Origin: a virus
IMG/VR virus record: IMGVR_UViG_3300021963_000055
Location: 40,878 to 104,877 of that record
Length of the DNA: 64,000 nucleotides
Direction: 5' to 3' (one strand)
Below the pieces are notes generated by a model that was not told the DNA's origin, did no database searches, and saw only the letters and a program-made list of their open reading frames with translations. Below are positions 24,114-58,871 of this stretch, one piece after another. Each line of letters begins with the position of its first letter. The stretch's first letter is position 1. The translations under genes were made by a program, and so were the position numbers.

Positions 24114-27100
24114 TTATATAAATTTGTCATAATATACGATACTGTTTTGAATATGTGTAGTGGGTGATTGAGATCTAGTGCAACCAACTAATTGATTTGA
24201 TAAAATATAAGTGTATTCTATAATCTCTCTGTCAATAATTGCTCTAAACGTGTCATATCCCTCTCCAGAATTTCTAACAATTACTGAAGTTACTCGTCCC
24301 ATACTATCTAGAATAACCTCTGGAACACAACCACTTCCACCTCCACCAATAACAATTACTTCTACATCTCTATCATCATACCCAATTCCCTGTGTAAGTA
24401 CATCAATTTTTTTAATTCTTCCATTGCTAATAAATGGTCTAAATGTCGCTCCAGATCCAGTAGAAGATTTAATTTCAACTCTAATTTCGCTCTGTTCAAA
24501 ATTTTGTGCGTTTGCTACTGGAATTATTTCTGATGTTGAATTAATTGTTGAAGTTAATTTTGTTCCTATTTTTATATTTGAAGTACTTAATGGCCTTTGT
24601 TTGTATGAATATGCATATGTAGTAGGAACTACAATTTGAGGTCCATATTGATTATATCCAGGATATTGAATTTGAACTGGAGTTTCTATGGTTCCACCTT
24701 TTATTGCGTTTATATTAGTTGTTATTTTTGCTCCAAATCCAGTTCCTAAAGTTCTCAATATAGTTGGATTTTTATATCCTTTACCTCCGTTTGATATTGA
24801 AATTGAAGTAACTTTGCCATTTGTTGTGGATGCAGATCCAATAAACCCAGATGGTTTTTCTCCAATATATGAAGTTGTTTTTAACAATGTTGGTGATAAA
24901 ATATCTGTAACAACTCTTGGATTAGATTCCCCATCAATATGTAATTCATCACCAACATTAATTTGATATGATCTACTATTCACATTTACATCCAACCTAG
25001 TTCCTCTAAAATCTAAAATTACTACTTTACTTCCAGCTGCAACTGTGTTTGTAAAAATAATTTTATCATTATTGATATAATAATCATAAAGTGGACTTTG
25101 AATATTGCCATCTTTGATAACTAAAATTTGATTTTCATGACTTCTTGGCCTTTCAATAATAGCATTTGGATAATAAGGTCCAAATTTTGCAGCAACACCA
25201 GAATTAGTCATTTGAACTGGGCCAGTTCTAGTCATTACAATTTGCTCTAAAATTGGCATTAATATTCCATTTCTAGTTAATGTCGAAACAGGAATTCCTG
25301 ATGACATTTCTAATATATTAGTCGCTGATGTGACTAATATAGTATTTAATTTATTAAATGAACCAACACACTTAACTGACACTATATCAGTAGAAATTAA
25401 TGGAGAATTAAATTCAATTTGACTCTTTATATCTCCTTGTAAAGTATAATCTACTCCAGCCTCTAAAAATTTTCCATTTTTAGTAACAATTAAACTAGAT
25501 TCTGATGCTACGGAATCCACACTTACCGTACCTGGAGGCATAAAATTATCTTCATTTAAGAAAAGATTAAATTTAGTATTTACTCCATTAAATGGAGTAT
25601 TAGTTTGATCTAGTAAGTGAAAAACTCCAGCAAATTTAATGCCAAAAATATATGCTGATGTATTTGGGGATGTAAGTGTAATTCTATATCCAGTATTGTA
25701 AGTATATTCATTTAATTCATTGAATTTCCAACTATTATTTGAGAATACAACTAAATTTTCTGTTGTACTGAGATTATCAATATCATATACTGTATTTGAA
25801 TTAGATACTGAAGTTAAATTTACAACCTGATTTCCATACATTCGGATCCTGAAAATTTCATCGGTAAATTGTGGGGGAGTTGCAAATTCTACAATTCCTC
25901 TGTTTGGAGATATTGTATATTGCACTCCAGGATATTGTATAACACCATTGACAGATATTAAAATGTCTGCATCCTGAATAATATCGGAACTAATTAAATT
26001 TTGTTCATTATAAAATAATCTAAATTTCTTTCTAGTTCCATTTGGACAATCATCTGGGTCATTTAAAAAATGTATTGAAGGATATTTAATTGCAAAAATA
26101 GAATCTATTTCAGTATTTGAAAGTAATGTTACTGTATTTCCTGAAATGGTAAAATTTTGTCCATAAAATTGAGGAACACCATTAATATGAAGAACTAAAT
26201 TTGCCCTTTCATTTGTTGAAATAGCAGTTCCGAGAGTTATGGAAGTTCCAGAAATATTTGTTATAGGTATTTCTGTAGTTCCATGTCTATATGCGATATA
26301 AATTTCATCATCTTGCGTTATATTTGTAGTAAACGTAATATAACCATTTCCAACTATAAAATCTTCTCCAGGATTTTGTGAAACTCCATTTCTTAAAACA
26401 AAAACATCAGAATTTGCTGGAGGATTAAAACTTCCATAATTTTTTTGCAATTTATATGTAGATTTTGAAAAATCATCATTTAAATAATCTACAATTATTG
26501 TATCAGTCGCAGAAGTTCCTACCTGGTAGATATGCACAGGTGATAGTGAATAATCACGAATATTAAATAATTCATGAGCATTAGTTAGTTCTATAATTGC
26601 AGAATTGCAATTATATGTGGAAGTTTTTTGAATAACTCCATTTACTAGTAAAATTAAATTTTCACTCGTTGCGGGCAGTAAAGTGTTTATAATAGTGTTA
26701 TTTTTAAGTAAATTATATTTATAATTTGCAATAGTAATTATATCGGATGAAGATATATTAGAAGTAAACGTAATATATCCAATACCATAATTATAATCAA
26801 CACCAGGAATTAATAATGTATCATTTTTATAAACAAAAATATTTCCACTTATTGTATTATCATAATATACATAATTTGATGATAATTTATAAGTATTTTT
26901 GCTATAATTGTCATTAATATAATCTAAAACATCAACATTATAAGAAGAAATCTGAAATACTTTAGAACGGTAATTTACATAATTAATTACATTATTCAAT
27001 CTTAATATATTTCCATTTATAGTATAATTCACTGATGGAACTAAAATTGAATCATTTATATCTAAAATTAAATCCTGAGCCCTTGGAAGATTTGTAGTTA

Positions 27101-30100
27101 TAGGAATTAAATTGGTGCATAATTGATACTCATTAACATAAATTTCAATTGCATCAGATTCTAAAATAGGATTTGCAAAAGTAATATACCCAGTTAAATT
27201 TGCATAATCAGTTATTGGATTTAAAGTAATTCCATTTTTTATCACAGTTAAACTATTAATTCCAAAAATTACATGTGTTTTATAGTTAAATTGTAGTTTA
27301 AAAGTAGTTTTTGTAAAATTATCATCTATGGGATCCAATAAAACTGTACCATAATTTACACCCAATTTGTAAATTAAAACTGTTGAATTTATATTTAAAT
27401 TTTGATTTAATAATGTTATTTCATTATTTGAAGCTGTATATGAAATCTCGGGTATTTGAACTACACCATCAATGACTACAATTAAATCTGAAGCTTTAGT
27501 TAAATTATCTGGAATATTGACATTGTTTTTTTGTAAAGTATAAGTTGAAATATTATTTTGTACAGTAAATGAATCTAATTGCACTTTTGCAGAAATAAAC
27601 CCAAATATTTTTACTTTATCGGTAGATAAATTTACATTTTCATCAAAAGTTAATATACTAGTACTAGAATTGTAATTCCATGAACTAATTTGAATAATTC
27701 CATTTACATATATCAAAAATACATCAGTATCTATTATTGGAGTTAATGATGTATATTGTAAAGAATTTGATGACAGCTGTGTAAATCTATTAGTTACATC
27801 TACTATATCTGAATTTGGATAACTAACAATATGAACTGCCTCAGTTGAATTTGGAGCAGTTAAAAATTCAATAGATGGTGAATTGTCTGGTCCAACGATA
27901 GAATAATCAACATTTTCATATTGGTATACTCCATTTCTAAATACATGAAATGTTGAATCATTGGTAACATTTAAATAATTTTTAGTTAATGCAAATTTTA
28001 CATTTACAGAATTAAAATTTTTAAAATTATCAAGTTGAATCACATTAAAACTATCAATTTTTGGTTTTGATGTTTTAAATGCAATTATTTTTAAATTATC
28101 TATATTTAAATTTGTTGGTTGAATAAAAGTTAATACGTTAGAAGAAAAACTCCAAGTTTCATTGCTCAATAATATTCTGCCTTGTGCAGTATCTTTGTAT
28201 ATTAAAAATGTATTGGTATCTATTGTTGGTGATGTTGATGTATATTGAAGTTGGGTTGGTGAACTTTGACTAAATCTATTAGTTACATCTATAATATCGT
28301 CATTAACAATATTTCTAATATCAAATTTGTCGGTCGAAATTGGTGCAGTTTCAAGCTCAAGATATTGGGCAGAATTTTGACCAACAATAAATTTGGAATT
28401 GTTGCTGGTTTTTACATCATATACATCTGAATGTAAATATTTTCCATTTTTGAAAATTTGTAAATTAGTATTACTTAATATAGGAGTTTTGATATAATTT
28501 TTTGTTAACGCAAACGTTTTATTTACTCCATTAAATTCTTTAAATGAATCTAATCTTTCTGGAGTAATTTGATCTAAAAATCTTTTTTGTGATTTAAAAG
28601 CTAATATAGAAACTTTATCTAATGCTAAACTTACAAAAGATCCACTAAAAGATAGAATATTTGTAGTTGTATTAAAATTCCACGCAGTATTATCCTGTAA
28701 AACTCCGTTAAGATAAATTAAAAATATATCAGTGTTAACTATTGGAGATTGACTTGTATATCTCAATGAAGTTGTATTTTCTTGTGTAAACCTATTTGTG
28801 ATATCAATTAAGTCATCTCCCATGAATGCAGTGATAACAATATCATCATCTGTAGTTGGCGCAGTTGCAAAATTTATATAATTATAATTAGAAGTTCCAG
28901 CCATAGTGTAATCAATTCCTGGATATTGATACGCACCATTTCGGATAACTTGTAAATTACTAGATGTTGCAGGATTAATACTAATATAATTTTTAGTTAA
29001 TGAAAATTTAGTTTCAATGCCATTATATTTTTTAAATGTATCAAATTCAAAATTTTGATTCAATCCATCATATGCATAATACATTGATATAATTTCTCCA
29101 TATAATGGAGTTGTTGTGAAAGTTATATTTGATCCTACTATTATATAATCTGTTACTGGTTTCTGATATACACCATTTCGGATTACAATTACATGATGTT
29201 CAGTTATTGGAGCAAATAAAATTCCATCTAAAGTGATTGGGAATGTTGCTCGGACACCATTGAAACAAATAAAAGGATCTATAAGTACATTTTTAGTTTT
29301 TTGTGGAGATAATTGACGATTGAAATATGCAAGTTTTATATTATCGGTAGAAGTTGGTGCCAAATTAAAAGTAATTTTATTGGCGAAAACAGTATGACTT
29401 TGAGAATCTGGTTTAATTAAATTTCCGTTTTTAATTACAAAAATATCTTCAAGATTTTTAACATAATGAGGAACACCTCTATCAGATAAATTAAAAGTTT
29501 TTCTAGTGCCATTTTGAATGACATTTAATCTATCTAAATCTGCACCTTTAGATGATGTAGTGGTATTTGACAAATATTTACTTATAAAATCTACAATGGT
29601 GCATTTTGTTCCAGTAGGATAAACCTGATTAAATGTAATATTAGAACCAGATAATGTATATTGAGAAGAATCTAAAATAGTATTATTTACATATACAATT
29701 AAATTATTTTTTCCATTTATTGGAGTATAAGAAATTCCATCCGCATATTTAAGTGCAAATGTAGTTAAAGTTCCATTAAATTTAATTTCATTTAAAACTT
29801 CTACATAACTGGTTGAATATTCTGGATTTGAATAAGTAAATCTTGTATCATATCCATATACAGTAGTATTGTCAGGATCTGTATATACAGTGCCATCTAA
29901 TAAATCTTTAGTTGTTTGATATAAAGATTTTGGAGTTTTTATTGCATTAGATTCAATGTAGCAATTTAATTTATGTACATCACAATCATAAATTTGCGTA
30001 ATTTTATTTGGTTGTGATGTATTAATATTATCTAAATAGCAAGCTACAGATTCATCAATATACCAACCAAAAATATCAGATGCATTCACAGAAGATGACA

Positions 30101-41935: not shown

Positions 41936-42140
41936 GATATTTTGGAAATTTTTTTTTATTTAAATCACTATATCTAGGTCGATCTAGGAATGGTATAGCT
42001 TAGGGTAGTTAAGGCTTTTTGTACGGGTACGGGGGGCGGCGACCCATAAGGGCCGCTTATACTGCCCCTGCCCACTGATAAGCACTGCTGATGGATCAGA
42101 TCTGCTGATGGGTGGGGGAGGCTGGCTCCCCCTCTGCTTA

Positions 42141-42308
42141 TCAGTCCCAGAGCAGGTTGGCGATGGCTTCCAGTCGCTGCTGGCGGGTGGCCAGCTCGGC
42201 TTCGATGGCCTCGGCTTCCTGTTCGGTAGGGTTGCCCTCATCGAGCCATTCCATCAGCTGGAAGCTGCTCAGGTCGTCGAAAGCGGTGGCGATGGTTGCG
42301 TCGAGCAT
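42141..42308 (-). CDS. Small acidic early protein (55 aa, not in the ORF track)
   Basis: MLDATIATAFDDLSSFQLMEWLDEGNPTEQEAEAIEAELATRQQRLEAIANLLWD; GGAG RBS, own promoter, hairpin at 42114-42132. Confidence 0.7.
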   Translation of the reverse strand: MLDATIATAFDDLSSFQLMEWLDEGNPTEQEAEAIEAELATRQQRLEAIANLLWD

Positions 42309-42334
42309 GGTTGGCTCCGTTGGTTTGCTTGATC

Positions 42335-42389
42335 AGTCTACCATGGATGGGGCCAGCTTGTGGCCAGCCCCGTTACAAAGGTTTACACA
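42335..42389 (-). promoter_or_regulatory. Early promoter with HLR1-like (RpaB) direct repeat
   Basis: -10 TAGACT at 42340-42335; GTTACAAA-GG-TTTACACA at 42372-42389; no TTGACA. Confidence 0.65.
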
Positions 42390-42697
42390 GGGCTGGGGCG
42401 ATCCTGGCTCCAGCGAACTAGCCTGCGGTTGCTGGCCTTGCTGTAGACTCGGTTGCCAATGGTTCGGCCATCGGCCAGCGTGATCACGCTGCGGCCAGCG
42501 GCGTCAGCAGCAGCCTGCAGAGCCTGGCGTCCCAGCTTGCGCTCCTCCTTGAGAGCAGTCTCACTGGTGGCCAGATCAAACAGCCACTGTGCCCGATGGC
42601 GGCCAACGATGACGCCATGGCGGATGGTGACCTTGGCAACAGCAACAGCCACTGCGGTGGGGATGCTGGTGCGGGTGAGGCGGTCAGAGCGGGTCAT
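42383..42697 (-). CDS. Hypothetical basic early protein
   Basis: ORF preceded by a TATAAT promoter at 42746-42741. Confidence 0.6.
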   Translation of the reverse strand: MTRSDRLTRTSIPTAVAVAVAKVTIRHGVIVGRHRAQWLFDLATSETALKEERKLGRQALQAAADAAGRSVITLADGRTIGNRVYSKASNRRLVRWSQDRPSPV

Positions 42698-42740
42698 GGT
42701 CTCAGGTGGTTGTGGGGGCTTCTCTCGCCCCCGTGTTCAA

Positions 42741-42803
42741 ATTATAGGGCATGGGTGGGGGCTGTCGATGCCCCAGACCCGAACTGTTACAAACCGAAAT
42801 AAT
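42741..42803 (-). promoter_or_regulatory. Early promoter with a degenerate HLR1-like repeat
   Basis: TCGACA-N16-TATAAT; GTTACAAA-CC-GAAATAAT at 42786-42803. Confidence 0.55.
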
Positions 42804-43561
42804 TATACTTTAGCGGCCAGAATAGCCTGGCGTTCCTTCCTGTAACCGCTGAACTTACCAGCACGGCGGCGAGCATGGACAGCTTTGCCATAGGTTGAAC
42901 CTTTAGGCTGTGTTGAGTGTACCAACAGTGCAAACGGTTTGTCACCAAAACAGTGCGAGTCGTCGTGATCAACCTCTAGCCCAATCGCTTCAGCTTCTTC
43001 ATCGTTATGCACAACTTTACTGTAGCGAGTGAACACACCTGCGTCGATATAGTGGTCGAATTTGCCACCATAACTTGCCGTCATGAAGAAGTTAGAGGGC
43101 AACTCCAAACCTACAAACAGTGGCAGGTTTTTGCTGTAGCAGTAGAACTTGAGATCAGGGTTCAGCTTTGCCACTGTGATCCAGGCATCCAGATAGGCAC
43201 CCGAGAAGAAATCACCAGACTCGTGAATCCTGACGAGTTTGCTATTCTTCTTGCGAGCATTCTGCAGGCTGTTGTTGATCAGTTCGGCTGCAGTGTTGGT
43301 TTGGATCGCCTCAACAACCAGCTGCAGATTGCGAGCCCGAGCATAGAAAGGGCCATCGTATTGTGCTTCACTAGTTGCAGCAAAACACCTAAATTGTGTT
43401 TGAGGGCCATCCTGAACTTTACGCTTGCCGTCTTCATTAACAACAGCAAACGAGAGACAGAATAGAGCGCCAGGGCAGGTTTTGCCAGCTGGCAGGCTAA
43501 AGATCAGGGTGCCCTTACCGAGCTTGGCGTTACCGTGGCTGAAGGTCAGAAGGTCAGACAT
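42803..43561 (-). CDS. GP88-like Cys-rich protein
   Basis: Motifs GNAKL, FSLPAGKTCPGA..C, CFA, RIHESGDF, FYCYSK. Confidence 0.75.
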   Translation of the reverse strand: MSDLLTFSHGNAKLGKGTLIFSLPAGKTCPGALFCLSFAVVNEDGKRKVQDGPQTQFRCFAATSEAQYDGPFYARARNLQLVVEAIQTNTAAELINNSLQNARKKNSKLVRIHESGDFFSGAYLDAWITVAKLNPDLKFYCYSKNLPLFVGLELPSNFFMTASYGGKFDHYIDAGVFTRYSKVVHNDEEAEAIGLEVDHDDSHCFGDKPFALLVHSTQPKGSTYGKAVHARRRAGKFSGYRKERQAILAAKV

Positions 43562-43587
43562 TGGTGGTTTGGGTGTGAACTGAGGTT

Positions 43588-43642
43588 AGTCTACCAGATG
43601 GGAAGGGCCAGGCTGGCTGGCCCTGTTGCAAAGCTTAATGCT
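43588..43642 (-). promoter_or_regulatory. Early promoter with HLR1-like repeat
   Basis: -10 TAGACT at 43593-43588; GTTGCAAA-GC-TTAATGCT starts at 43625 (32-nt offset). Confidence 0.55.
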
Positions 43643-43880
43643 GTGTCACCCAGTGGTCCATGGTCATGATCCAACCCTCACCGTGCCACGTATGGAAGCG
43701 ATCGGTTTTGAACTGCTCCCACTGGGCTTTGGTGATCAGATGGCCCTCAACCCATACCAGGGTCTGATCCTGCTCCCGCTCAGCTTGCTTGGCCCCAGCC
43801 CGCACCCGAAACATTTCGGCTGCAATGGTTCCCTGGCTGGCGTCAGGGCCGATTCCTGGGAGGTGCTCGGTGTTCAGCAT
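43635..43880 (-). CDS. Hypothetical early protein
   Basis: Start re-placed at MLNTEHL, downstream of the promoter at 43904-43909. Confidence 0.6.
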   Translation of the reverse strand: MLNTEHLPGIGPDASQGTIAAEMFRVRAGAKQAEREQDQTLVWVEGHLITKAQWEQFKTDRFHTWHGEGWIMTMDHWVTQH

Positions 43881-43903
43881 TGGTCCTTTGCGACTGCTCA
43901 CGA

Positions 43904-43958
43904 ATCCTACACCATCGGGTGAGCCCTGAAGCCCACCCCTGTAACAGAATGAAATAAT
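43904..43958 (-). promoter_or_regulatory. Early promoter with HLR1-like repeat
   Basis: -10 TAGGAT at 43909-43904; GTAACAGA-AT-GAAATAAT starts at 43941 (32-nt offset). Confidence 0.55.
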
Positions 43959-44152
43959 TACATTTCCAGCTCCCAGTTCTGATCTTTGTGCATATCAACC
44001 CAGAAAATCTCTTCAGGGTCAGCTATACTTGCCAGCAACATTCTGCCATCCATGTGTCGTAGGATGGTGCAATGCTCGCAGCGTTTGAGTGCATTAGCGA
44101 ACCTGTTTTTGGCTTTCTTGCTGATAGGTTTGACTGAAATGATCTGTGCCAT
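43958..44152 (-). CDS. Conserved small cyanophage protein
   Basis: VKPISKKAKNRFAN...FWVD..KD.NW. Confidence 0.7.
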   Translation of the reverse strand: MAQIISVKPISKKAKNRFANALKRCEHCTILRHMDGRMLLASIADPEEIFWVDMHKDQNWELEM

Positions 44153-55419: not shown

Positions 55420-55785
55420 TCATCTAAGTATTTCAATGTGTGTAATCTTACCTAATTTAAAACATATACTACATCGTGGCCATGCTTCCCAAGTATCGTT
55501 TGGGTTTTGTTCTGGATAAACCTCAATACAATCAGTAATATATTGAGGTCGAACAATCCCATGATTGCCATTTGGAATCCATTGAAATGTGGCCCAAGGT
55601 GGAAGTGATTCGTCATCAACTTCTACAAAGTCTGCAGTCATGCACTCATCAATCTCAAATAGTTCACCTGCAGGGCTAATCCAATATTCAAACATAGAAC
55701 ATTTAAGTCCTTTGGTTTGTAGTGTATGATTATTGAAATGTTCGTTGATAGGATATGAGCAACGAACACGGTCAAACAGTCCCAT
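55420..55785 (-). CDS. Conserved phage hypothetical protein
   Basis: MGLFD.V.C...QTKGL.C.M..YWI...G.L. Confidence 0.7.
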   Translation of the reverse strand: MGLFDRVRCSYPINEHFNNHTLQTKGLKCSMFEYWISPAGELFEIDECMTADFVEVDDESLPPWATFQWIPNGNHGIVRPQYITDCIEVYPEQNPNDTWEAWPRCSICFKLGKITHIEILR

Positions 55786-56258
55786 TAGAAATCACCTTTA
55801 CCTTGGGAGACATCAAAAGTAAATATACCACGCTCCTGCCACATTGTCAAGACCCGTTTTCGATCATCAAATACTGCAAAGATTTCATACTGTTCTTCGA
55901 TCTGATCAGCAATCTCTGCCTTAACAATAGCATCATCACGATGGTCTTGATACTTTCTCATATAGAGAGCATTATAATCATCAGTCGTGATATTGTTATC
56001 TTCAAACCATTTCAGAGTTACATCACGATAATCATCAGATCGACCACTCACAAAGAAAATAGCATAGAAATACTTCAATGCATGAAACATTGCAAGCACT
56101 TGATTTACAGGTTTATCATTAGCAATACCACGATTCCATGCGTCCCAGTTACGAGGCTTGGTTGCAACAAACTGTCTACGATGTGAAACATCACACAGAG
56201 TACCATCCAGATCAAAGACGATACACTTTTCTTTAGGAGTATTCGTAGAGGAATCCAT
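55785..56258 (-). CDS. HAD 3'-phosphatase, the phosphatase half of T4 Pnkp (PseT)
   Basis: Motifs FDLDGT, VSGR, LYMR...D.RDD..VK, FDDR, C-terminal GDF. Confidence 0.9.
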   Translation of the reverse strand: MDSSTNTPKEKCIVFDLDGTLCDVSHRRQFVATKPRNWDAWNRGIANDKPVNQVLAMFHALKYFYAIFFVSGRSDDYRDVTLKWFEDNNITTDDYNALYMRKYQDHRDDAIVKAEIADQIEEQYEIFAVFDDRKRVLTMWQERGIFTFDVSQGKGDF

Positions 56259-56613
56259 GGTTGGTAGTGTAGTGAACGTGAGTAATGCCAGCTTCTTTAA
56301 GTGCTAGTTGGCAAATAGGACATGGCCGAGCCATTCGTAATTTACCCTGTGGATTGATCCTAGCGACAATGATAGTATCTACTTCATCACGACACTTAAC
56401 AAGTGCAGCAATCTCTGCATGAAGATAGATTTTTTCTTTGAGACCCACTCGTTCAGCGAACTTAGCTTGAAGTGGATGAGACTTAGTTTCCAGGTTAGTT
56501 GCAGCTACAATCACCTTGTTTTTATTGAGTAGCAAAGCGCCAACTTGTTTCTTTGATGGGGAAGACTTTGCAGTTGCAATAGCCTGGTCAAACACCGAGT
56601 CAGAAATCATCAT
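56233..56613 (-). CDS. Zn-dependent nucleotide/nucleic-acid deaminase
   Basis: HAE and RPCPIC motifs, VGALL strand. Confidence 0.9.
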   Translation of the reverse strand: MMISDSVFDQAIATAKSSPSKKQVGALLLNKNKVIVAATNLETKSHPLQAKFAERVGLKEKIYLHAEIAALVKCRDEVDTIIVARINPQGKLRMARPCPICQLALKEAGITHVHYTTNHGFLYEYS

Positions 56614-57110
56614 GCTACCTGCAATTTCAGATGCGACCCATCATGAGTCATAATAACATCAAAACCTTCGTCTTCAGTTGGCATTTCAAATTGGTGATAC
56701 ATGCGAGTAATAACAGAACGTGGAATGAATTTGTTTGCTCGTTGAGAATTGCGAATGATAGCTTCTTCAAGAGTGATAGGAAGAACCACTGCAGTCTTGG
56801 TATATTCTTCTGGAATCTTCTTTAGTTTCTTGATGCGAGACTTTCTAGAGACATTAGTTTGGTCCCAGATGATAGACTTGCCTCGTTGGATAGCAAGTTC
56901 TAGGTCTTGATACATGCGTGTGGTAGCTTCATCAATAACTTCATCGAAGACTTCATTGTAAGTCTTGTTATTTGCTTTGGCATATTCTTCGATGTAATTA
57001 TCTGTGGAAAGAATTACATATTCATCAAACACATCTGCATTTTCAATTCCCCTGCGAATGTAAGTAGACTTGCCTGCACAAGGAATGCCACACATCATAA
57101 TCAGTTCCAT
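56610..57110 (-). CDS. P-loop polynucleotide kinase (AAA_33), the kinase half of Pnkp
   Basis: Motifs CGIPCAGKST, LSTD, WDQTN, RNSQR, PT.DEGFD. Confidence 0.88.
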   Translation of the reverse strand: MELIMMCGIPCAGKSTYIRRGIENADVFDEYVILSTDNYIEEYAKANNKTYNEVFDEVIDEATTRMYQDLELAIQRGKSIIWDQTNVSRKSRIKKLKKIPEEYTKTAVVLPITLEEAIIRNSQRANKFIPRSVITRMYHQFEMPTEDEGFDVIMTHDGSHLKLQVA

Positions 57111-58270
57111 GAAATACCTCCGAACATCCAACGGGAATCGTTTAATTTGGTTTGTGAAGTGAGAGATTTCTCGATTGAATCAATCAAGAGTTGTTTACAT
57201 TCTTTGCCTTGTTTCATGCCAAACATGAATGGGCGATGAATGGGAAGAAGCATTCGGTTTACAAACTCAACGGCAAACTCCTTTTTATCTGGATACATCT
57301 TATCACCACCTTCAAAGATGGTAGTAAGGTCTTGTGCCACCTCATCAACTGCACTCCAAAACTCAGACTGGAACTTTCGCAGTCGAGCAGAATCATCTTC
57401 AGTGAGCAGTGGAATCATATCATCTACTGCATCATTGAGGATAACTTGAATGATATTCTTTTCTGAGTTAATTTGTTCTTTAGAGCGATGTCGAAGAATA
57501 TATTCATCTGCTTTAATTTTGACCATATGACCATCATCAAAACGGATAACTACACCTTCACCATCATCCCATTTGCGAATGTGGTCAACAACCTTAGTAA
57601 TGTCGGTTTCATCACCAGCAATTGCTTTCACAAAAGGAATACCATAATGTTCCGCAAGTTCTACCATGTTAAAGTATGGTAGATAGTTACCCTTAGTGAG
57701 ATTACGAATACCAGTGAGAATGAGTTGGTCTTCTGGATAGTCAACTACAATACGATTCTTACGAGAACACCATTCAAATATAGGTGTCATTCCACCATCA
57801 ATCATGGCACGAATAAAAGTGTTGTATTGTGGCTTATCACCAATGAATACTTCTGCATTCATTGCAACATCAGTAATACCTGCTTTTGTACCAAGACGAA
57901 ACCCTTCTGGAGTTGGAATAGGACGAATCATCGAACCATCTAGCTTCTCCAGAACTACATGTGAAGCACTTAAGTTGAGTTTATCAATCTGAGTTTCTTC
58001 TCGTTCACCAACATTGAAGAACTTATGATATGGACGAGATATTAGTTTGCCAGTAGCATTATCAAAGATAAGACCACGACATTCACGACGCATCCACATG
58101 TTGTAATGTGTACGATGGCGAATGAGTGAGAATGTATCTTCAAATGCAACCATGTAGTTGATAACAGTGTACCAACCTTTGTCCATTACTTTGAACTCTG
58201 GCTTGTCTTCAATTTGCAGAAGAACATCATCAATGTGATTGATGTCAGGAAATGTGTAGTTCATCTTCAA
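57101..58270 (-). CDS. rnlA: RNA ligase 1 (T4 RnlA-like)
   Basis: RECRGLIF, RPYHKFFN, motif I EKLDGS, FEW, EGVVI, MVKIK. Confidence 0.93.
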   Translation of the reverse strand: MKMNYTFPDINHIDDVLLQIEDKPEFKVMDKGWYTVINYMVAFEDTFSLIRHRTHYNMWMRRECRGLIFDNATGKLISRPYHKFFNVGEREETQIDKLNLSASHVVLEKLDGSMIRPIPTPEGFRLGTKAGITDVAMNAEVFIGDKPQYNTFIRAMIDGGMTPIFEWCSRKNRIVVDYPEDQLILTGIRNLTKGNYLPYFNMVELAEHYGIPFVKAIAGDETDITKVVDHIRKWDDGEGVVIRFDDGHMVKIKADEYILRHRSKEQINSEKNIIQVILNDAVDDMIPLLTEDDSARLRKFQSEFWSAVDEVAQDLTTIFEGGDKMYPDKKEFAVEFVNRMLLPIHRPFMFGMKQGKECKQLLIDSIEKSLTSQTKLNDSRWMFGGISWN

Positions 58271-58499: not shown

Positions 58500-58871
58500 T
58501 CAACAATGTCCATCTGATTCAGTATCCCAAGGAGCAGGTCGAGAGAGTAGTTGTCGTAGAAATGGGGTTGGTGGATCGGGGTTATTGATCTTCTCCATCA
58601 TAGAGTCATAAGCCTCTTCTGTCAAGTAGATGGTCTCTGGAATCTCATCAGGAGAACTTATACCCATCATAGCTTCCTCTGTTCCTGGGGCATTAATGAA
58701 CGCATCATACTCCATAGTCCACCAACCATTGTTTAATTCATACCAGAAATCTGCATACAAATGCCTATCATCAAGACGATAACCTTGATGACAGATCATA
58801 CGATACCAATACCAGAATGGAGTGCGGATAATCGGTTTAAATCCGATTATCCATTTGTGTATAAACGTCAT
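58500..58871 (-). CDS. Hypothetical protein with a DUF1778-like C-terminal segment
   Basis: IYLTEEAYDSMMEKINNPDPP...LRQLL..PAPW. Confidence 0.55.
   Translation of the reverse strand: MTFIHKWIIGFKPIIRTPFWYWYRMICHQGYRLDDRHLYADFWYELNNGWWTMEYDAFINAPGTEEAMMGISSPDEIPETIYLTEEAYDSMMEKINNPDPPTPFLRQLLSRPAPWDTESDGHC

Follow-up and report, generated by a model that had tools for sequence, protein, structure and literature searches.

An uncultured T4-like cyanophage carries an RNA-mending set of an RNA ligase, a kinase and a phosphatase, and a deaminase gene is placed between the kinase and phosphatase genes (Table 1). Judged by sequence, the reading of Rnl1 and the split kinase and phosphatase as a T4-type set for healing and sealing RNA ends is well supported. 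The deaminase appears to be independently mobile and to have been inserted in one narrow lineage, and therefore it is most likely a neighbour of the repair genes and not part of a new "repair-and-edit" machine. Taken as a whole, it is probable that a T4-type repair set received, in a narrow lineage, an independent mobile deaminase of free pyrimidines that has no role in repair.

Table 1. Features of the cyanophage RNA-repair locus and its surroundings
Feature	Coordinates	Strand	Evidence
Rnl1-type ATP-dependent RNA ligase, 389 aa	57101..58270	-	PF09511, T4_Rnl1_C, phrog_562, 2c5u match
Stand-alone P-loop polynucleotide 5'-kinase-like protein, 166 aa from ATG	56610..57110	-	AAA_33, phrog_505 N-terminal half
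Zinc deaminase, CMP/dCMP-type superfamily, 126 aa	56233..56613	-	PF00383, phrog_174
Stand-alone HAD 3'-phosphatase, Pnkp type, 157 aa	55785..56258	-	PF25109 HAD_PNKP, phrog_505 C-terminal half
Candidate promoter-like site TTGACA-17-TATGAT	58597..58625	-	11/12 consensus matches
Conserved phage gene phrog_1615, downstream; marker of syntenic slot	55420..55785	-	phrog_1615 1.5e-33

A preliminary description of this DNA had reported four overlapping genes in the order Rnl1, kinase, deaminase and HAD phosphatase. This layout was confirmed, with all four genes on the minus strand, and a motif check revealed intact catalytic motifs in all four proteins. Rnl1 and the kinase overlap by 10 nt, the kinase and the deaminase through ATGA, and the deaminase and HAD by 26 nt, and the phosphatase start codon falls within the 3' end of the deaminase gene. 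The kinase reading frame extends up to a TTG at 57131; the ATG at 57110 is the start used by relatives. The promoter-like site upstream of a 61-aa ORF and Rnl1 is possibly the start of one transcript spanning all four genes; it is only a candidate because such sites are no more numerous in the region than chance would give. When the locus was compared with isolated phages by megablast, no match appeared, and comparisons were therefore made at the protein level.

Rnl1 was identified by profile searches (PF09511, 8.5e-31; T4_Rnl1_C, PF20819, 2.2e-6; phrog_562, 4e-75) and matched the T4 Rnl1 structure (2c5u, 7.8e-21), with its KLDG aligned to the KEDG of T4. The protein contains KLDG with K109, EGVV and KIK; the KxDG lysine, motifs IV and V and the Rnl1-specific C-terminal domain of the T4 Rnl1 family were all found. 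The kinase matched AAA_33 (1.1e-20) and positions 2-145 of the 295 positions of phrog_505 "polynucleotide kinase" (1.3e-16), and the HAD protein matched PF25109 HAD_PNKP (8e-29) and positions 157-294 of the same 295. In the PDB, the kinase matched the tRNA kinase PSTK (6.5e-7) and, only weakly, the kinase domain of Pnkp1 (1e-3), and the HAD protein matched the phosphatase domain of Pnkp1 (2.6e-12) and residues 156-299 of T4 Pnkp (3.7e-8). Both carry the motifs of the respective Pnkp domains: Walker A GIPCAGKS (8-15), STD (35) and RNSQR (120), an RxxxR, in the kinase, and DLDGT (16), SGR and DDR in the phosphatase. These domain, phrog_505-half and motif matches bear out the earlier assignment of the ligase and the split kinase and phosphatase to RNA repair. 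The kinase-phosphatase fusion of T4-type Pnkp is absent, the two being separate ORFs here, and the same holds for 32/32 related cassettes that lack the deaminase, where the two genes lie in different frames or the gene order differs. The split evidently predates the insertion of the deaminase, and the locus shows that a T4-type RNA-repair set whose Pnkp is natively split is maintained in cyanophages.

The survey of where the deaminase occurs covered 80 viral contigs that carry a related Rnl1. It was present in nine of them, all close relatives with Rnl1 at least 78% identical, and 32 contigs carried Rnl1, kinase and HAD without it, with the kinase and HAD genes abutting, 226 nt apart, or in the order HAD-Rnl1-kinase. 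The position of the deaminase was constant across all 10 contigs of the cassette-bearing lineage. Homing endonucleases or tiny ORFs occupy the same junctions in other lineages. In contigs L038 and L059, Rnl1 and the kinase are separated by an HNH endonuclease, and an Rfam scan detected no intron in the interrupted Rnl1 of L059. In contig L030 a homing endonuclease (phrog_314) separates the deaminase from HAD, and the deaminase allele of this contig is only 74% identical whereas the flanks are about 90% identical.

Deaminases 61-81% identical were found in unrelated contexts, among them beside 2OG-Fe(II) oxygenases, beside peptide deformylase, and in the up123/phrog_1615 slot without repair genes; the phrog_1615 gene directly follows the cassette-free deaminase in contigs L016 and L017. 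Profile searches of the complete cyanophage genomes Sf-CH8 and ACG-2014f, which bear the deaminase at 60-81% identity, found neither PF09511 nor PF25109, and the PF09511 search detected all three control genomes known to carry Rnl1. In a complete relative (G001), the single PF00383 gene is the same deaminase, and ThyX is also present. We found no report in the literature of RNA repair genes linked with a deaminase. The deaminase occurs mostly outside the cassette and the cassette mostly without the deaminase. The preliminary description had named a lack of linkage to RNA-repair genes in relatives as the observation that would speak against an editing role, and this is what the contig survey and the complete genomes revealed; its fallback, that the deaminase could be a passenger, fits best. 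Its remark that the gene has no nucleotide-metabolism neighbours carries little weight, since T4 cd lies near pseT and the homologue in jumbo phage GAP32 adjoins thymidylate kinase (Tmk) and NrdD.

The deaminase was assigned to PF00383 (4.1e-10) and phrog_174 (1.6e-20) by profile searches. It contains HAE (65) and PCPIC (97), and H65, E67, C98 and C101 are shared by all of 68 homologues. Its length of 126 aa had been set apart as shorter than a T4-type dCMP deaminase, a detail that does not hold for dCMP deaminases at large: the solved chain of the cyanophage S-TIM5 enzyme, with 138 aa, is only a little longer. It belongs to a clade of short phage deaminases with the signature N40-x3-K44-x-H46-P47-x-Q49 plus R85, and the family has K-T-H-P-x-Q where dCMP deaminases have GYNG/GWNG. 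This motif of canonical dCMP deaminases is missing, and the GWNG/GYNG of 4p9c and 2hvv faces ATN in the alignments. The best family-profile match was the S-TIM5 dCMP deaminase (5.7e-12); the S. mutans dCMP deaminase matched at 1.7e-9, the T4 enzyme (1vq2) at 4.8e-7 over a partial region, and TadA at 5.6e-7; the single-sequence match to the S-TIM5 enzyme had only E = 0.12. The AF2 model (pLDDT 97) ends at residue 126 in a CDA-like C-terminal β-hairpin, without a C-terminal helix, and its best fold matches were cytidine deaminases (Z 12-12.8 over 101-109 residues), with TadA at Z 10.4 or lower. His (HAE) takes the place of the first zinc ligand, in contrast to Cys (CAE) in tetrameric CDA, and the NCBIfam CDA models gave 26.6 bits, far below the cut-off of 113.65. 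The deaminase is closest to dCMP deaminases by profile and to cytidine deaminases by fold, and not to TadA. The missing GYNG/GWNG and the CDA-like hairpin count against the explanation preferred here, and the hairpin makes dCMP an insecure choice of substrate.

The deaminase is under strong purifying selection and is better conserved than any other gene of the cassette in the lineage that bears it, with dN/dS of 0.02-0.055 as against 0.08-0.23 for the other genes; by these sequence measures it is evidently a working gene. This conservation and the constant position also count against the preferred explanation. With so short a protein the deaminase tree had poor resolution, and it gives only a weak hint that the cassette allele of contig L020 lies outside the main cassette group. 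The clade itself is large, with 1697 representative clusters (E up to 1e-3), and uncharacterised, and its substrate is worth an assay.

The gene identities, intact motifs, distribution, selection and T4 synteny are shown by the analysis; we infer that the deaminase takes no part in repair and that it most likely acts on free pyrimidine nucleotides or nucleosides. According to this explanation, Rnl1 would work with a polynucleotide kinase-phosphatase encoded as two proteins throughout the phage group, and a small mobile deaminase gene would have entered the kinase/phosphatase junction in one narrow lineage. The inserted gene would then have become tightly packed, coupled through ATGA to the gene upstream and with the phosphatase start within its 3' end, and its co-transcription with the repair genes is proposed to reflect nothing more than the dense packing of early genes in T4-like phages. 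The enzyme would convert dCMP to dUMP, or catalyze a close variant of this reaction, and the product could feed the phage ThyX to provide dTTP for a genome of 35% G+C. If so, the locus is a clear example in T4-like phages that tight overlap and co-transcription do not imply a common pathway.

TadA holds tRNA by the anticodon arm, to which its C-terminal helices bind. The preliminary description proposed that the deaminase edits mended tRNA so that a host anticodon nuclease cannot cut it again, by analogy with the 2'-O-methylation by Hen1 in Pnkp-Hen1. The gene does overlap tightly with the repair genes and probably shares their transcript; it is fixed in place, coupled in translation and the most constrained of the operon, and its HAE/PCxxC core is common to TadA-type enzymes, although the name "TadA" on its homologues is an automatic JGI pipeline label. 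However, the linkage is limited to one narrow lineage, the deaminase resides in complete phage genomes without Rnl1 or the Pnkp phosphatase, and unrelated inserts occupy the same junctions in other lineages. Neither the sequence profile nor the fold gave TadA as the best match, the model of the 126-aa protein closes with a hairpin and has no TadA-like C-terminal helices, and ARAGORN detected no tRNA genes in the window, that is, the whole 64-kb stretch of DNA analyzed. It is thus quite improbable that a deaminase of the free-nucleotide type was recruited in one cyanophage lineage to edit repaired tRNA or other cleaved RNA against a host ribotoxin. If true, it would be a new phage route to tRNA resistant to anticodon nucleases.

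An alternative of somewhat better, though still low, likelihood is that the deaminase acts outside RNA repair but is not a plain dCMP deaminase, and uses dCTP, a modified cytosine nucleotide, a nucleoside or ssDNA, for example in shaping the pool for DNA modification, or in a conflict. The signature N-x3-K-T-H-P-x-Q with R85 in place of GYNG, the fold matches to nucleoside cytidine deaminases and the 2OG-Fe(II) oxygenases that flank the closest free relatives (Sf-CH8 and contig L021) are consistent with it. Moreover, phage PF00383 enzymes called "dCMP deaminases" have been shown to act on dCTP analogues and on ssDNA, some with a preference for 5mdCTP or ssDNA (bioRxiv 10.1101/2024.12.05.627091), and homology therefore leaves the substrate unfixed. 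On the other hand, bona fide dCMP deaminases are the best sequence-profile matches, the neighbours differ between lineages, and no dCMP methylase or hydroxymethylase was seen beside the deaminase. We rejected as very improbable a nucleotide-salvage trio of nucleotide kinase, deaminase and 5'-nucleotidase with Rnl1 as a bystander. Nucleotide enzymes do occur among AAA_33 kinases and among HAD phosphatases, and the HAD protein weakly matches 5'-nucleotidase and acid-phosphatase models, but the kinase and HAD match the two halves of phage Pnkp (phrog_505), HAD also matches HAD_PNKP, and they accompany Rnl1 across distant phages whether or not the deaminase is present.

The locus resembles that of T4, where rnlA (gene 63), alc, pseT.3/.2/.1, pseT, cd.5 to cd.1 and cd follow one another on the same strand, with cd 1.3 kb downstream of pseT. 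In both phages the genes for Rnl1, for Pnkp-type kinase and phosphatase activities and for a PF00383 deaminase share a strand and fall within a few kb of an early region, and the catalytic motifs of ligase, kinase and phosphatase are conserved. They differ in that T4 Pnkp is one fused protein whereas the cyanophage kinase and phosphatase are separate genes, and in that T4 cd is an allosteric enzyme of 193 aa encoded downstream of pseT whereas the cyanophage deaminase is short, divergent and placed between the halves; the two deaminases are distant homologues only. Linkage of the Hen1 methyltransferase with Pnkp is consistent, and the two form a complex. The Pnkp1-Rnl-Hen1 and Pnkp-Hen1 systems (e.g. 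Capnocytophaga gingivalis Pnkp1, 4xrp) have HAD and kinase domains homologous to those of the cyanophage (2.6e-12 and 1e-3), and the earlier idea matches their scheme of healing, sealing and then modifying against re-cleavage. In contrast to Hen1, the candidate modifier here is missing from most related cassettes and common without them, and linkage of a modifier to the repair enzymes across lineages was not found for the deaminase.

The S-TIM5 dCMP deaminase (4p9c) shares with the cyanophage deaminase the HAE/PCxxC motifs, the small size and the cyanophage origin, in addition to being its best profile match. However, its GWNG segment is replaced by ATN-x3-K-x-HP-x-Q, and the model, without a helix between the last two strands, is slightly closer to tetrameric cytidine deaminases than to dCMP deaminases (Z 12.8 vs 10.9). 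For split or rearranged Rnl1, kinase and HAD genes, a survey of PKN-HAD proteins in jumbo phages provides a comparison set (PMC7824862). No deaminase lies inside any Rnl1/kinase/HAD set examined in the roseophage DSS3P8 group, Caulobacter phage Cr30 and Synechococcus phages B3 and B23, and the deaminase homologue of B3 is 21 kb from its Rnl1/kinase set. In these phages Rnl1 adjoins a stand-alone kinase, as it does here, and HAD phosphatases of the Pnkp family can occur alone.

The preliminary description of four overlapping genes on the minus strand (58270-55785) was confirmed, and every expected catalytic motif is intact. Rnl1 matches the T4 Rnl1 structure 2c5u (7.8e-21), with KLDG opposite the T4 KEDG. 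In the PDB, the kinase matches PSTK and the kinase domain of Pnkp1, and the HAD phosphatase matches Pnkp1 (2.6e-12) and T4 Pnkp residues 156-299 (3.7e-8). The stop codon of the kinase gene overlaps the start codon of the deaminase gene in a shared ATGA, and the phosphatase start codon is located 26 nt inside the deaminase gene. A sigma-70-like candidate site with a good match is present upstream of the block at 58625-58597, such sites being no commoner in this region than expected by chance.

Features of the RNA-repair cassette, its surroundings and related viral loci (coordinates with an L prefix refer to those loci)
Feature	Position	Strand	Matches and remarks
Rnl1, 389 aa		-	PF09511 8.5e-31; T4_Rnl1_C; phrog_562 4e-75
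P-loop kinase, 166 aa		-	AAA_33 1.1e-20; N-terminal half of phrog_505 'polynucleotide kinase'
HAE/PCxxC deaminase, 126 aa	56233-56613	-	PF00383 4.1e-10; phrog_174 1.6e-20
HAD phosphatase, 157 aa		-	PF25109 HAD_PNKP 8e-29; C-terminal half of phrog_505
Thioredoxin-like protein, 92 aa	61423-61701	-	CRPC motif; Thioredoxin_2 4.2e-5, under family cut-off
GP88-family gene, 252 aa	42803-43561		PF17338 5.7e-44
Homing endonuclease	L030:5938-6831 (IMGVR_UViG_3300025646_000024)		phrog_314 5.9e-13; between deaminase and phosphatase
Conserved 77-86-aa ORF	L034:5600-5833, L038:6086-6346, L059:7095-7355		Kinase/phosphatase junction of deaminase-free relatives
Rnl1 in two ORFs, 208 aa and 197 aa	L059:3971-5823 (IMGVR_UViG_3300046777_001709)		~630 nt between; then HNH endonuclease gene

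The genes lie in the 3'-terminal 64 kb of an IMG/VR record of 104,877 bp that is ~57% complete, has a G+C content of 35%, and finds its protein relatives among T4-like Synechococcus phages (Kyanoviridae). ARAGORN returned no tRNA gene anywhere in the window (1-64000). The G+C content peaks at 0.56 in 42001-44000, versus ~0.35 elsewhere, and this peak spans the GP88-family gene. The thioredoxin-like gene is situated ~3 kb upstream of the cassette on the same strand, and its product may be an NrdC-like redox partner in nucleotide metabolism.

To place the cassette among its relatives, the four proteins were located by tblastn in 80 distinct viral contigs encoding Rnl1 relatives of 37-93% identity. 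The complete order Rnl1-kinase-deaminase-HAD was present in 9/80 contigs, all of them closely related (Rnl1 identity >=78%). Another 32 of the 80 had Rnl1, kinase and phosphatase but lacked a deaminase within ~4 kb, 16 had Rnl1 and kinase, and in 22 Rnl1 was the only one present in the fetched stretch. Where Rnl1 is 51-69% identical (the next-closest group), the ORFs for kinase and phosphatase overlap by ~1 base or are 226 nt apart, the gap surrounding the 77-86-aa ORF, and a more distant group (Rnl1 ~40% identical) has the order HAD-Rnl1-kinase. Since Pnkp is encoded by two genes in deaminase-free groups, the split is ancestral in these phages and was not caused by the deaminase.

The junctions between the cassette genes are hot spots of insertion and exchange. 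An HNH endonuclease gene (HNH 4.9e-17) separates Rnl1 from the kinase in two loci, L038 and L059; Rfam detected no intron in the interrupted Rnl1 of L059. In L030 the deaminase allele is 74% identical to that of the window and the flanking genes ~90%; a homing endonuclease beside so divergent an allele suggests endonuclease-driven allele exchange. The 77-86-aa ORF, for which no Pfam or PHROG family was found, fills the exact slot held by the deaminase in the window.

The deaminase is a real gene under constraint. Its dN/dS was 0.02-0.055 against eight cassette-bearing relatives, except for the exchanged allele of locus L020 (0.20); the values for the four neighbouring genes were 0.08-0.23, and the deaminase dS equals or exceeds theirs. 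The family, mostly ~105-150 aa and drawn from viromes and metagenomes, comprises 1697 representative clusters at E<=1e-3 and 332 at 1e-10, with 496 close clusters. H65, E67, P97, C98, and C101 are invariant, and M1, N40, K44, H46, P47, Q49, L64, A66, R85, and A104 nearly so. To our knowledge, no member of this short phage family has been characterised. The best structure matches of the family profile were dCMP deaminases (S-TIM5 5.7e-12, S. mutans 1.7e-9, human 3.1e-7, T4 4.8e-7), with TadA at 5.6e-7 and CDA at 1.2e-4. The AF2 model (pLDDT 97) ends in a predicted CDA-like C-terminal beta-hairpin, and its superposition placed tetrameric cytidine deaminases first (Z 12-12.8), then S-TIM5 dCD (10.9) and TadA (<=10.4). 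TadA was never the nearest relative by profile or fold, and a C-terminal helix is absent from the model; 'TadA' names on homologues are pipeline labels.

The preliminary description proposed that the deaminase edits mended tRNA against re-cleavage, with a passenger gene as the fallback. Close relatives of the deaminase (61-81% identity) are carried by contigs and cyanophage isolates that have no repair gene in the vicinity. Two loci (L016, L017) carry the deaminase in the same syntenic slot, between an up123 homologue and the conserved downstream gene phrog_1615, without Rnl1, kinase, or HAD. The closest free relatives (Sf-CH8, 27096-28691; L021:3445-5021) are flanked on both sides by 2OG-Fe(II) oxygenase genes; in L023 and L024 the deaminase follows peptide deformylase, and in ACG-2014f and S-CAM7 its neighbours are small hypothetical genes. 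Neither PF09511 nor PF25109 was found in two complete deaminase-bearing genomes, Sf-CH8 (175 kb) and ACG-2014f (215 kb); for PF09511, the same search recovered Rnl1 from all three genomes used as controls. Synechococcus phage B3 has Rnl1 next to the kinase and the deaminase homologue 21 kb off. More distant homologues neighbour thymidylate kinase and NrdD (GAP32), topoisomerase III (Carin-5), or replication genes (KLEP7). Linkage to RNA-repair genes thus fails in relatives, complete genomes included; this distribution lends no support to RNA editing, which we regard as very improbable. We favour the view that the deaminase is an accessory gene, mobile in its own right, which came to be inserted at a permissive junction, and its occurrence in and out of cassettes favours the passenger reading. 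In a complete 172-kb relative with terminal repeats (G001), it is the only PF00383 gene and ThyX is also encoded; G004, a relative with a deaminase-free cassette, has ThyX and lacks the deaminase, which is therefore an accessory gene.

By inference, deamination of a free cytosine nucleotide or nucleoside would be the most economical role, providing more dUMP and dTMP for an AT-rich genome, like T4 cd, which is annotated in the dNTP-synthesis pathway. Two observations qualify this role. In contrast to canonical dCMP deaminases, the family lacks the GYNG segment, which is replaced by the signature N-x3-K-(T/S)-H-P-x-Q plus R85 (alignment A1, 68 sequences). Moreover, some phage PF00383 enzymes are reported to prefer 5mdCTP or ssDNA (bioRxiv 10.1101/2024.12.05.627091). 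The RNA-repair set itself is real, ordinary, and T4-type, its Pnkp being natively split; such sets are also known from roseophages, Caulobacter phage Cr30, and the Synechococcus phages B3 and B23; stand-alone HAD phosphatases have been treated for jumbo phages (PMC7824862). The same-strand early order of T4 is td, nrdA, nrdB, denA, rnlA, alc, pseT.3/.2/.1, pseT, cd.5-cd.1, cd, and thus a dCMP deaminase shortly downstream of RNA ligase and Pnkp is already the T4 arrangement.
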